Below are positions 12,165 through 41,772 of a stretch of 64,000 nt of DNA, one piece after another (positions within the stretch are counted from its first letter, which is position 1; the number at the start of each line of letters is the position of its first letter). This stretch comes from Sphaerodactylus townsendi (taxonomy: Eukaryota): positions 90,954,001 through 91,018,000 of the forward strand of contig NC_059433.1 of assembly GCF_021028975.2 (NCBI RefSeq), in the 5' to 3' direction. The position numbers were made by a program, and so were the translations under genes. A model generated the notes under the pieces. The model did not search any database and had not been told where the DNA came from. It worked only from the letters and a program-made list of their open reading frames with translations.

Positions 12165-12358
12165 CCCAAACACTTACTGATTGGCTCCCCACCTTGGGAC
12201 ATGGACAATATATACCCCAAACATTCCCTTCTCTCTGGACACAGTGTGTAATCTGTGATACACCTCTGAGGATGCCAGCCACAGTTGCAGGCGAAATGTT
12301 AGGAACAAGATCCACCAGACCACGGCTACACAGCCGAGAAAACCCACCAGAACCAGTT
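12165..12358 (+). mobile_element. Penelope-like element pLTR fragment
   Basis: cctctgaggatgccagccacagttgcaggcgaaatgttagg...cacggctacacagccgagaaaacccacc, typical squamate Penelope terminus; related to 14292-14588. Confidence 0.8.
12263..12303 (+). ncRNA. Minimal type I hammerhead ribozyme motif (degenerate)
   Basis: CCT-CTGAGGA-TGCC..GGC-GAAA-TGTT-AGG: catalytic core, helix II and 3-bp helix I. Confidence 0.65.
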
Positions 12359-14291: not shown

Positions 14292-14588
14292 TGAGGTGCT
14301 GGGTGGTTTCTGGGCTGTATGGCCGTGTTCTAGCAGCATTCTCTCCTGACATTTCGCCTGCATCTGTGGCTGGCATCTTCAGATCCAGGAGAGAATGCTG
14401 CTAGAACAACTTTGCTTGTCTCTCAGAGGCGTTCCTCCCATTGGGCAAAGTGGGCAGTTGCCCAGGGCGCCCCCTTGTGGGGGGCGCAAAAACTGCAGGT
14501 CAGGAGAGAATGCTGCTAGAACACGGCCATACAGCCCAGAAACCACACAGCACCCCAGTGATTCTGGCTGTGAAAGCCTTCGACAATG
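14292..14588. mobile_element. Composite inverted Penelope insertion
   Basis: Minus arm ~14292-14383; plus arms 14386-14408 and 14499-14588; 10-bp direct repeat caacatttac at 14282-14291 and 14589-14598. Confidence 0.85.
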
Positions 14589-37180: not shown

Positions 37181-38568
37181 AATACCACATGGACTGTGTG
37201 TAAATGTGATACCCCATATGTGTATAAGCTACATGAGTCTAAACAACCTCATCAAAAATTGGAGCATTAGAACAGCTGACAAAAATATCAACAAACATAC
37301 AGAGTGCCAGATCAGAAAACATCCTGTTCCATCAGTTGGACTAAGACAGCACATCTCATATACTGAATGGCAGCAAAACTTAGGTACTATCTTCTGTCCA
37401 AAAGTATAGACCAATTTACCTAAAGTCTTACCAGTCTGGAGCTTTTAGAACTCTGAACAAAGCACTAGAGATTTAATAAATAATCAAAACATCAATAAGA
37501 TGAGCTCATGTCCAAGCTATATACAATTTGCTGAAGGGGCTGAATGGGCTCCTCCTTCTTGAAAGAAAAAAATAATAATACCAGCATTCAGACAACAACA
37601 CAGACAACATCTGTATTTGCTGAGGCCTCGATCAATTGTAATTAGGGTGCTTGGCAGCTGTCCCTTTGAAGCTCTTTAAGCAAAAGACTTTTCTTAAAAA
37701 TCTAATAATGAAATGGAATGTAGAGTGCACACAGTCTATCTTACACGCACTACCATGCCTCAGTTGAAGCATTTATCTTCATAGCTACTTTACACTGGTG
37801 GCGAGTTATCCTTTTAATGGGTGTGACGATAAATGTCACAACGTAGCACTCTATCATGCTTCACTTTTGAGATATACTGTATGGAAGTCAAGATATACTG
37901 TGTGTGTTTTGCTGGCTTAAGGCCACTTGGAAAAAAGCAGATATTGCAAATGCCTGTTTCGATTTGAAACTATGTGGACTATAAACAACAATGGCAGAGA
38001 ATGGCTGGAGACCAAAATCAGAGAGGGGGGCCAACTACATTTTGGATTATGAAACAAAGAGACTGTTATTTGACTGTATTTAACTACACAGGCCAAGTTT
38101 TAATCTTGCCAATAGTATCTTGAATGGCAGCAGCTCTTCCCTCATAGGACTTCAACTGCTAAGGTTATCAGCACTGCCTTGGCAAATGCCAGAGGATTTA
38201 AAAGGCACTGCCTGGTGAGGATGGATGTGCTCAAGGAATTTCCTCTAATGCCTTTGGTGAAGACCACAGAGGCAAGAAAATTCCTAGAGCATCAGGAGGC
38301 CATTTTTCTCCCATCCCTTAGTTTCTCAGGAGTGGGGGACTGGAGTCAACGGTGGGAGTTTATTGCCTTGCACAGGTAAAGGACAAACTCTAGGTCAATC
38401 AGTCTCCTTAAATTGAAAATGGCTGGTATCCTAACCAGACAAGACACTAAGAGTCCTGTGCATGGAACTCTTGGTGTTTGTTTTTAAAGTCTTGCTCAAG
38501 TTTAGATCAGCTCTGCAATGCAGAGAGGATGAGGGTTTCAGCCTTCCTTCTACGCTGTCTGTCTAGCT

Positions 38569-38676
38569 CAAGGGTCTGCAACCTGCAGGTCTCCAGATGT
38601 TCATGGACTACAATTCTTATCAGCCCCTGCCAGCATGGCCATGAACATCTGGAGAGCCGCAGGCTGCAGACCCCTG
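38569..38676. mobile_element. hAT-Charlie-like MITE
   Basis: TIRs caagggtctgcaacctgc / gcaggctgcagacccctg; TSD gtctagct/ttctagct. Confidence 0.88.
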
Positions 38677-38799
38677 TTCTAGCTCATGGCAGTCCTGCAG
38701 AGCTGCTGCTTTTTTGTTCTACTGGGGAACAACATGGAAGCATTTTGCTTTGGTTGCAGCCTGCTTTTCTATTGGTGAAAAAGAGAGACCACTGTAAAG

Positions 38800-40425
38800 G
38801 TTGTGTGAGTTCTAGGGCCATGTCTGAGAATAGCACCATGGTCCGTTTTAGGTTTTTAGTTTTGCCTTAACCCGCACCCTTGCCTGACCCCTAGCCCTAA
38901 CTTTTTATTTTTATTTAATTTATTCAGTCAAAAAATTATAACAAAAACCTGAAATCTAAAATTGACCTCAGCCCTATTCTTGGACTGCGCCCTAAAACTC
39001 AACGTAACACTAAAGCGAGACTGAGCCCATGCCCTTGCCTTAACCCTAACCCTAATTTAGTATTTTTATTTAATTTATTCAGTCAAATATTGTTCCCAAA
39101 ATAGTAACAAAAACCCGAAACCTAAAACTGACCATAGCCCTATTCTCAGACTGCACAATAGATCACAACGTAACAATAAGTCAAGCCTGAGCCCGTGCCC
39201 TTCCCTTAACCCTAACCCTAATTTATTATTTTTATTTAATGTATTCAGTCAAAAATTGTTCCCAAAATTGTAACAAAAATCCAAAAACTAAAACTGACCA
39301 TAGCCCTATTCTAGGACTGTGTCCTGGAATTCAACGTTACACTAATTCAAGCCTTTCCCCCTGCCCTTGCCTTAACAATAACCCTAATTTATTACTTTTA
39401 TTTCATTTATTCAGTCAAAAATTGTTCCCAAAATTGTAAAAAACACAGGAAACCTAAAACTGACCATAGCCCTCTTCTCAGACTGCGCCCTAGAACTCAA
39501 CGTAACACTAAAACAAGCCTGAGCCCCTGCTCTTGCCTTAACACTAACCCTAATTGATTATTTGTATTTAATTTATTCAGTCAAAAATTGTTCCCAAAAT
39601 TGTAACAAAACCCGGAAGCCTAAAACTGACCATATACTCGGACTGTGCCCTAGAACTCAACGAGACACTAACACAAGCCTGAGCTCCTGCCCTTGCCTTA
39701 ACCTTCACCCTAATTTAGTATTTGTATTTAATTTATTTTTTGTTACAATTTTGGGAACAATTTGTGACTGAATAAATTGAATAAAAATAATAAGTTAGGG
39801 TTAGGTTAAGGCATGGGTAAGGGTTCGGGCTTGCCTTAGTGTTTCATTGAGTTCTAGGGCGATGTCCAAGAATAGCGCTATGCTAAGTTTCAGGTTTGGG
39901 GTTTTTACCTTAACTCTTACCCTTGCCTTAACCCTAACCCTAATTGATTATTTTTATTTAATTTATTCAGTCAAAAATTGTTCCCAACATTGTAACAAAA
40001 ACCCGAAACCTAAAACTGACCATAGCACTATACTTGGACTTCGCCCTAGAACTCAACGTAACACTAAGGCAATCCTGAGCCCCTGCCCTTGCCATAACGC
40101 TAATCCTAATTTAGTATTTTTATTTAATTTATTCAGTCAAAAATTGTTCCCAAAATTGTAACAAAAACCCGAAATCTAAAATTGACCTTAGTCCTATTCT
40201 TGGACTGCACCCTACAACTCAACGTAACACTAAAGCAAACCTGAGCCCCTGCTCTTGCCTTAACACTAACCCTAATTGATTATTTGTATTTAATTTATTC
40301 AGTCAAAAATTGTTCCCAAAATTGTAACAAAAACCGGGATGCCTAAAACTGACCATAGCCCTATTCTCGAACTGCTCCCTAGAACTCAATGTAACAGTGA
40401 GGCAATCCCAAGCTCCTGCCCTTGC
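38800..40425. repeat. 166-bp satellite array with telomere-like hexamers and internal inversions
   Basis: tattcagtc anchor at 38921, 39076, 39242, 39408, 39574, 39964, 40130, 40296; reverse-orientation segments ~38800-38863 and ~39737-39906. Confidence 0.95.
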
Positions 40426-41772
40426 ATAGTCTCCTGTGAGACTTATGGTTACTCTTGAGTGTCAACCAGCTGGTGAAGGAGAGTCATTCTGCCAGTACTC
40501 CTTGGCCAAGTGAACCTATGACACCTAATAACACCAGATACTCTGCATCTGCATCTGGTCTAATTAAGCAAACACCTCCATACATTTTCATGCCTACAGG
40601 ATGTAATGTGTCCTTCCAGATGCTTTTGATCTTGAAACTGCCTGACCTAGTGTGTTGCCATTTGTCTCATCATGCTCTTTGAAGCTACAAGCAACTTGCC
40701 ATCAGTTCACAGATAAAGAAACTCCCATGATTTTTCTTAGGCCTGAACCATTGTTTGAATTGACAAGAGACTGCAAAAAGGGACCAGCCTCTTGACATTT
40801 GGTTAGTTTCCTGTAGCATAGTTCAGACACATTTACCCTGCCAGGACACCAAGATCATGATGTGGCAGCAGTGGAGAAATGCCTCCAAAATGACATCAAG
40901 CAGCAACATCATATGCATGCTTCTGTTCATACAATTAATATGGAAGATCTCAATGCTTCAGATCGCTTTATTTCCAGACTTGCACTGGGGCATTGTGACA
41001 CAGCCTGTCTATAAGATAACACTGATGTTTCTAGAATATGGTAGAAGCAGTGATTCATTCCAAGCTTCCAGACATTTTGTAGAATGGCTGTAGAATCTCC
41101 ATGTGTGTGGAATTTATAGTACTTCTAATCAAGATCTGATTAACTTGCACTGAGCTTACTGCTGGGCCTTCCGAATTATGGAGAGAAAGGGAACATTACA
41201 AGCTCAGAGCGTTTAACACAAGCAGCATGTCCTAAGATTATTTCCTATCAGACCATTCTAATATCTCATGAGTTGCATGCACAGCTGTGTCCTGAGGGTA
41301 ATTGTACCAGGCCTGCGCCTGTGCTGGACAACCAGAGGTTAATATTCAGCATCTTCCTGCAAAACAGTCTGAGATTAGTATAAATTGTAATCCTAACCAA
41401 TTTCCTACAGTCAGTTCAGTGGAAATCAGTGGGATTTACTTTTCAGGCAGTGTGAAAACAATGTTTGCTACTCTAAGGTTGTTTTAAGGAAAAGACATGA
41501 TCAAATAAGTATGATATGTAGGCAGATTCCAAAGAGAAAACTTTATTAGTTTGTTGCAGCAAAAGCAAAGGGGAGGCTTTGGGCACCGTAAAGAATGCCA
41601 GGGAAACATCTGTAGATGTATGTTTTTGCAGTAGGGCAAATATGGATTCTCTGGTACCATTTCTGATCTGACCGTCTGAGTAGAGACTTATCTTACCTCC
41701 AATAGCTTTCCCAATCCATACTGAGTTCCTGCTTGTCTGATTTTCATGGAGACCCATTTTGGGAATGCCACT

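Follow-up and report, generated by a model that had tools for sequence, protein, structure and literature searches.

The window, as we call the whole 64-kb stretch of Sphaerodactylus townsendi DNA that was analyzed, contains at positions 38806-40427 a 166-bp tandem repeat with a telomere-like unit. How did such an array come to lie there? An earlier note, made from the letters alone, took it for the orphan of a satellite. Our analysis leads to a different answer: with a probability of roughly 0.75, the window array is a copy of a dispersed repeat that travels as hAT cargo, likely delivered by a hAT element that was then excised.

TRF reported two 166-bp runs, 38932-39737 (4.9 copies, 84% matches) and 39920-40425 (3.0 copies, 86% matches), and the successive monomer anchors are spaced by 155, 166, 166, 166, 390, 166 and 166 bp. 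Both results agree with the claim of an array of about eight forward monomers, mostly 166 bp apart. The forward units, about 8.4 in total, thus stand, but the array is not purely head-to-tail: one inverted 58-bp piece and one inverted whole monomer had been overlooked. The array begins with the inverted partial monomer on the minus strand (38806..38863, monomer positions m130 down to m73), with no TIR or TSD seen at this left end. It is joined through a tail-to-tail inversion junction, junction B (38855..38871; reverse m~71-73 against forward m~148), to a first forward run of about 5.3 units of 166 bp with two small deletions (38864..39736, plus strand). Junction A, a head-to-head inversion junction (39729..39754; forward m~42 against reverse m76), leads into the single inverted whole monomer (39737..39906, minus strand), and a second copy of junction B (39898..39914) into the second forward run of about 3.1 units (39907..40427, plus strand). 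A 6-bp inverted repeat with a 4-nt loop (40428-40443) abuts the right end of the array and may be there by chance. A small palindromic hAT-like element (38569-38676), with an 8-bp duplication matching at 7/8 positions, lies 130 bp to the left of the array; very many contigs from other sequencing runs align onto it.

The telomere likeness of the unit is real. Over 107 bp of the monomer (m78..m18) the lag-6 autocorrelation is 0.535 (z 5.6 versus dinucleotide shuffles), identity to (CCCTAA)n is 64.5% versus 38.8% in shuffles (p=0.0002), and CCTAAC ranks first among the 4096 hexamers in this frame. An example of this phased part lies at 40003..40109 on the plus strand (64% identity to (CCCTAA)n, shuffles 36%), and each of the six full window monomers tested has 56-64% identity. 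In a control for the picking of the stretch, the best 107-nt stretch reached at most 49.5% in 200 shuffled monomers and at most 47.7% in 300 flanking genomic 166-mers. When the perfect core is taken out, a lag-6 z of 4.3 persists and identity to (CCCTAA)n is 58.4%, with CCTAGC (60.7%) and CCTAGA (59.6%) fitting slightly better than CCTAAC. The autocorrelation and the shuffled and genomic controls bear out the earlier description of about 100 bp in 6-nt phase. Of the further description as a decayed telomeric hexamer array, the best fit to the vertebrate telomere unit holds, while the direction of decay is unproven. Judged from the sequence, a hexamer ancestor of the monomer appears well supported, and a telomeric ancestry is plausible, if unproven.

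Of all array bases, 4.9% belong to perfect hexamers. In the window array, perfect telomeric tracts reach 15 bp at most (39929..39943, plus strand, equaled at 39041-39055 and 39207-39221), and 107 of 109 arrays across the genome lack a perfect tract longer than 23 bp. The array does not contain the near-perfect (TTAGGG)n tract that defines an interstitial telomeric sequence (ITS). At two loci, L045 and L160, the monomer core is 63 bp of perfect (CCCTAA)n, and these tracts have regrown from the monomer core. In L160 the tract takes the place of the AT-rich spacer and passes without a break into the phased part that follows. In PMC4529230, heterochromatic ITSs are said to reach hundreds of kb and short true ITSs often to escape FISH detection. 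Because perfect hexamers are rare in the array and short ITSs are often undetectable by FISH, a signal from it is unlikely, and so is the suggestion that the repeat could explain interstitial telomere FISH signals.

The window array belongs to a dispersed family. A two-monomer query gave 653 first-look candidates; the best 40 of the 653 were scored and lie on 14 chromosome-scale contigs, with matches mostly 80-91% identical to the query. A 26-mer of the monomer has 555 exact matches in the genome (control, 0), and there are at least about 2000 monomers genome-wide, arranged in short arrays at more than 100 places on 15 contigs. The loci that we examined comprise 39 best-hit and 40 pattern-hit stretches (every listed C1 locus included), 12 junction stretches and 40 carrier stretches. 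Rows L054 and L062, which overlap L101 and L109, were dropped, as were L102 and L103, which cover a noisy 13-kb array; the second array of L054, adjoining carrier-like modules, went out of the counts together with L054.

This distribution bears directly on the reading in which an orphan array was deposited here from a satellite of telomeric descent whose main block lies in subtelomeric or centromeric regions. The telomere-like periodicity and one 13-kb higher-order array on C5 speak for it, and large satellite blocks are often missing from assemblies. However, the arrays are short (median 1238 bp, maximum 6242 bp among 109 arrays, a count that omits the noisy 13-kb array on C5) and frequently inverted, unlike the long head-to-tail arrays of a classical satellite, although assembly gaps could hide blocks. 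They also avoid chromosome ends, where a subtelomeric satellite would lie: counted from 100 of the 104 genomic places of junction A, 3 of 76 loci fall in the terminal 10% of chromosomes versus 15.2 expected, and none of these 100 listed places is on a small contig. Moreover, the arrays have hAT junction markers in common, and some lie inside hAT termini with TSDs (see below). We therefore consider this reading very improbable; dispersed short arrays depleted at chromosome ends and transported inside a hAT element take the place of an orphan from a subtelomeric or pericentromeric satellite.

Many monomers of the family differ in length from 166 bp, the value that the earlier note had likened to chromatosome length. 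In some members an 11-bp minisatellite replaces the AT-rich spacer; since this minisatellite varies in length, the family has no constant unit of 166 bp. The minisatellite, 17 to 367 bp long, follows the telomere-like core in both orientations (L071, L073, L080, L081, L084; further loci are L105, L107, L108, L109 and L051). The C5 array (about 18.91-18.93 Mb, L102:2397 to L103:5687) extends over about 13 kb and is built from a 321-bp higher-order repeat of the fold-back type that belongs to the family; its many small indels resemble sequencing error. A 3-kb run of nearly pure G beside another array (L097:1593-4601) is likely an assembly artefact. Contigs of two other organisms span the right junction of the window array, so the insertion is older than their split; of the small-share runs X6-X10, otherwise left aside in judging the range of the family, X10 has contigs with diverged monomers. 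SINE-like sequence in the flanks would suit a gecko-type squamate host. No description of the family was found in the literature searched, in line with the earlier suggestion that it may be undescribed. The search covered subscription journals thinly, Dfam and Repbase lay outside it, and the family may already have a name.

The inversions recur at fixed places. Sites A and B account for 284 of 368 strand switches in the 109 arrays, with 150 junctions of type A in 70 of the arrays and 134 of type B in 68. The 26-mer of junction A (39729..39754) has 104 exact genome matches, and its reversed control has none. Junction B carries a variant sequence of its own, a sign that it was inherited from a single template. 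Of the 60 arrays having at least two junctions, 25 are mixed in junction polarity, which suggests that segments were likely flipped later: a prediction of single polarity failed in these 25 arrays, and flipping between inverted monomers would explain the failure. Polarity matches the direction of the adjoining element in only 27 of 38 rows, which are not independent of each other.

What the arrays travel with emerged from a comparison of their flanks. The carrier, as we call it, is a low-copy element of 1.2-1.7 kb with a 14-bp TIR, CAGAGGCRTAGCTA, at both ends. Among the 27 of 40 copies for which the 3' end was found, the 8-bp TSD matches at 8/8 positions in 18, at 7/8 in five and at 6/8 in two; in the remaining two copies the match is 4 or fewer. 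The carrier's final 170 bp show 72-89% similarity to the 3' ends of elements coding for proteins with DUF4371 and Dimer_Tnp_hAT domains, one of which is 7370 bp long with a TSD of 8/8. An autonomous element sharing the carrier 5' end was not found in 16 stretches around 20 DUF4371 hits. With its TIRs, 8-bp TSD and terminal homology to transposase-coding hAT elements, the carrier is a non-autonomous hAT element. It is not a MITE in the strict sense: copies measure 1.2-1.7 kb (composites 1.4-4.7 kb) and copy number is low, 1.81 Gb of genome containing 44 exact copies of the 28-nt 5' end. Elsewhere in the genome, at L182-L192, several hAT elements have long transposase frames that stay open for 872-1042 aa between stops, and two of these elements are 96.5% identical, which suggests recent hAT activity. 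A PDB sequence search with one hAT ORF returned a single irrelevant match (E 0.47). The carrier also contains, at about 516-840 (L089:5268-6500), an internal palindromic piece that is common alone in the genome and occurs in the window at 12234-12358 and 14300-14587. It includes CTGAAGA...GAAAC motifs, which we take to be a putative hammerhead of the Penelope type.

Carrier and array are associated beyond the background. The carrier adjoins 13 of 38 and 11 of 35 arrays in two sets with three loci in common, versus 4 of 109 and 8 of 101 control points, and 25 of 70 arrays after end refinement. Viewed from the carrier, 11 of 40 5'-end loci have an array within about 125 bp of element sequence. 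At five loci an array lies between both carrier ends with an outer TSD (L067 and L125, 8/8; L149, 7/8; L037 and L155, 6/8). Same-direction carrier pieces flank the array on both sides at nine loci, and element pieces in opposite directions occur at two (L057, L113). Full carrier ends meet the monomer at GCRTTAAC in seven of nine cases at array-picked loci, and two carrier-monomer junction patterns are found at 5 and 10 genome places. At other joins the array is fused to various positions within the carrier, a pattern to be expected of hAT derivatives with internal deletions. The repeat thus occurs as a transposon-internal tandem repeat, which the earlier note had itself set against its satellite reading, though no named family was found. 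Array copies and carrier copies are about equally diverged, with pairwise identities of 82.8% and 84.8%.

The same association would say nothing about array movement if a target preference had repeatedly led the hAT element to insert into arrays already in place. Insertions of other small hAT-like elements into arrays do occur at several positions, and the two exceptional carrier ends (L074, L099) join the monomer elsewhere. However, the TSDs lie outside the element-array-element composites, five of which largely refute this explanation, the joins share one site together with private marker bases, and many of them fuse the array to mid-element positions. We find target preference scarcely credible as the cause. 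The other small hAT-like elements that insert into arrays have ends at m11-13 and m137-142. An element of about 1 kb with a GC hairpin and a CTAG-like end, presumably Helitron-like, sits in the AT-rich spacers of arrays at varied positions (L064, L093, L096, L080).

A more serious alternative is that the repeat is mobile by itself, through reinsertion of circular DNA, Helitron-like rolling circles or Penelope-like copying. The hAT composite would then explain a share of the loci, and the window array would have come by such a route from a template that had once touched a hAT element. Among the 70 array-picked loci, 38 have neither an element within 60 bp nor a footprint, and at three more the element is 69-86 bp away or inside the array (L110-L121, picked by junction patterns, are excluded from this count and from the 76-region count). 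Array ends are variable and generally lack TSDs; a TSD search at the ends of 81 arrays gave nothing systematic. Fold-back junctions, too, resemble hairpin or rolling-circle products. In addition, at four loci, spread over three chromosomes (L069:1483-4345, L080, L081, L109), the array is accompanied by a co-duplicated 2.9-kb block that consists of mixed genomic sequence; the copies of this block are 85-91% identical, three end at the same base, and carrier ends are absent. Yet, save for this block and one separately inserted element, the flanks of the 38 hAT-free loci have no second shared terminus, and neither a Helitron nor a GIY-YIG domain was found in the 75 of 274 flanking ORFs scanned. 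The three RVT_1 hits are at least 0.9 kb away from arrays, and no hammerhead family is found in 38500-40700. On balance, self-mobility seems to us unlikely, and transport by the hAT carrier the better reading.

Known mobile classes were considered individually. A Helitron or Helentron was rejected, as array ends share no hairpin/CTRR termini and the 75 of 274 ORFs hold no Helitron domain. So was a Penelope-like element or retrozyme: the 33 Rfam matches at E<=10 include no hammerhead, and the scanned ORFs no GIY-YIG domain. On the window array itself, Rfam gave only sub-threshold matches to miRNA-type hairpins, caused by the inversion. A piggyBac-like TTAA-CCC terminus is suggested by the many arrays that start with TTAACCC, but that end is the hAT target GCRTTAAC. 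Pfam domains in the 75 of 274 flanking ORFs comprise one glycosyl hydrolase exon, pieces of LINE-type RT/endonuclease and one weak ZrgA match. One 536-aa open frame, which encodes glycosyl hydrolase family 1 domains (L105:7862-9469), begins at a distance of 350 bp from an array end.

If the carrier can leave, bare arrays should be recognizable by where they stop. Element-free array starts do cluster at GCRTTAAC, 14 of 69 versus 2.9 expected, a level that none of 5000 scan simulations reached. The 3' ends of arrays, taken as one class, show no such clustering (8 of 62; p 0.85 in the scan). Two marker bases accompany the site. An A at m45 is present in four of six monomers after an element, in seven of 11 bare starts (among them two monomers that are likely internal and one join to degraded carrier sequence) and in 8% of 677 internal monomers. 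A G at m139 is present in seven of eight monomers before an element, a class from which L149 was left out as a misclassified internal monomer, versus 38 of 681 internal monomers; combined with a purine at m2 it occurs in 10 of 681. Four of the eight monomers before and five of the six after an element come from L110-L121, which were picked with patterns containing neither m139 nor m45.

The terminal monomer of the window array (40393..40427, plus strand) has both the G at m139 (40397) and the purine at m2 (40426), and the other eight scored window monomers have neither. It stops inside the hAT insertion site, four bases into GCRTTAAC, as do the ends at L042, L087 and L151. A contig of organism C has G at 40426, which would fit decay of an ancestral CG. 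The site end together with both marker bases suggests that the carrier was likely excised, and we interpret 40393..40427 as its putative excision footprint. There is no TIR or TSD at 38806 or 40427, and no carrier hAT sequence was found near the array; its route accordingly rests on the two marker bases and the end position, and we class the array itself as a cargo remnant, not an element. No empty orthologous site appeared in contigs of four other organisms, where matches were dominated by repeat contigs.

Taken together, we envisage the following history. A telomere-like hexamer tract of about 107 bp, still visible as periodicity, would have become the unit together with an AT-rich spacer. 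The two fold-back junctions, recurrent across the family, probably arose once and were then inherited. A 1.2-1.7 kb hAT element would then have inserted at GCGTTAAC in one monomer, as the observed junctions indicate; both copies of the GCGTTAAC duplication were never seen together in one locus. Unequal exchange between monomers likely duplicated element and array, giving an element-array-element composite, and a hAT transposase, whose exact identity we can only infer, would have acted in trans to move the composite by its outer ends, where the duplications are seen. Finally, internal deletions may have fused the array to variable element points, and excision of the whole element may have left bare arrays ending at GCRTTAAC, in agreement with the clustering and the markers. 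We propose that the array is a selfish hitchhiker, for which no host function is needed.

Three known systems come close in mechanism. The Xstir/Xmix work is reportedly that of Hikosaka and Kawahara in 2004, miDNA4 is said to have been studied by Scalvenzi and Pollet in 2014, and macro-transposition of maize Ac/Ds is reportedly due to Huang and Dooner in 2008. Xstir tandem repeats in the Xmix MITE of Xenopus occur as MITE, as tandem array and in composite forms (PMC12628747, PMC9659126), and so resemble our case in being a vertebrate tandem repeat found in all three forms. However, the proposed source of Xstir is internal sequence of the MITE itself, whereas in our case the carrier, a hAT, inserted into a foreign repeat that became its cargo, and the unit is telomere-like. 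In Xenopus tropicalis, miDNA4 is a Tc1/mariner MITE with a captured satellite (PMC12628747, PMC9659126). Its ends are proposed to have been lost by mutation, whereas our bare arrays bear excision-like footprints; a further difference is that here the capture site is narrowed down to one 8-bp target and the vehicle is a two-element composite. Paired nearby Ac/Ds elements of maize, also hATs, act together and leave 8-bp duplications and small excision footprints (PMC3744419). The joint activity of two neighbouring hAT elements, the duplications and the footprints are alike, but the maize cases are laboratory events in maize alleles, whereas here a fossil composite carried one repeat to many loci of a vertebrate genome.

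Other systems resemble the family in its product. Short ITSs of squamates and mammals consist of almost perfect TTAGGG tracts, whose addition is attributed to telomerase (PMC4529230). They are likewise interstitial, telomere-like, often beside transposable elements and mostly below FISH detection, but the unit here, 64.5% telomere-like, has a perfect core of 15 bp and owes its spread to a DNA transposon. Squamate satellites derived from Squam SINEs also form short tandem arrays at many lizard loci, below classical satellite size; they lean subtelomeric (PMC10702118), in contrast to the present family, which avoids chromosome ends and rides in hAT ends. The accessible text on the 17 gecko satellites given in PMC11049218 mentions none of 166 bp, and three short monomer motifs, compared as motifs and not as a whole-monomer alignment, are absent from its Uroplatus satellite table S2.

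Transposon-borne tandem repeats are thus already known, and what is unusual here is the legible hAT composite route and the telomere-like unit. Short euchromatic satellite-like arrays without transposon ends are common, and their route of spread is usually guessed. In this family the route can be read in the sequence, from the hAT insertion through the two-element composite and the target duplications to the markers of the departed carrier, which offers a testable example of bare 'orphan' arrays as remnants of hAT excision. The 63-bp perfect tracts in two of 109 arrays allow a further, tentative and rather doubtful reading, in which a vertebrate hAT macrotransposon drops telomere-derived arrays across chromosome arms and then departs by excision, while the 15-bp TAACCC core that stays in place grows back into true short ITSs. 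If true, ITSs could arise by this route with no need for chromosome fusion or for the healing of a random break by telomerase. The family also carries a warning: telomere-like interstitial repeats in lizards are not automatically scars of chromosome fusion.
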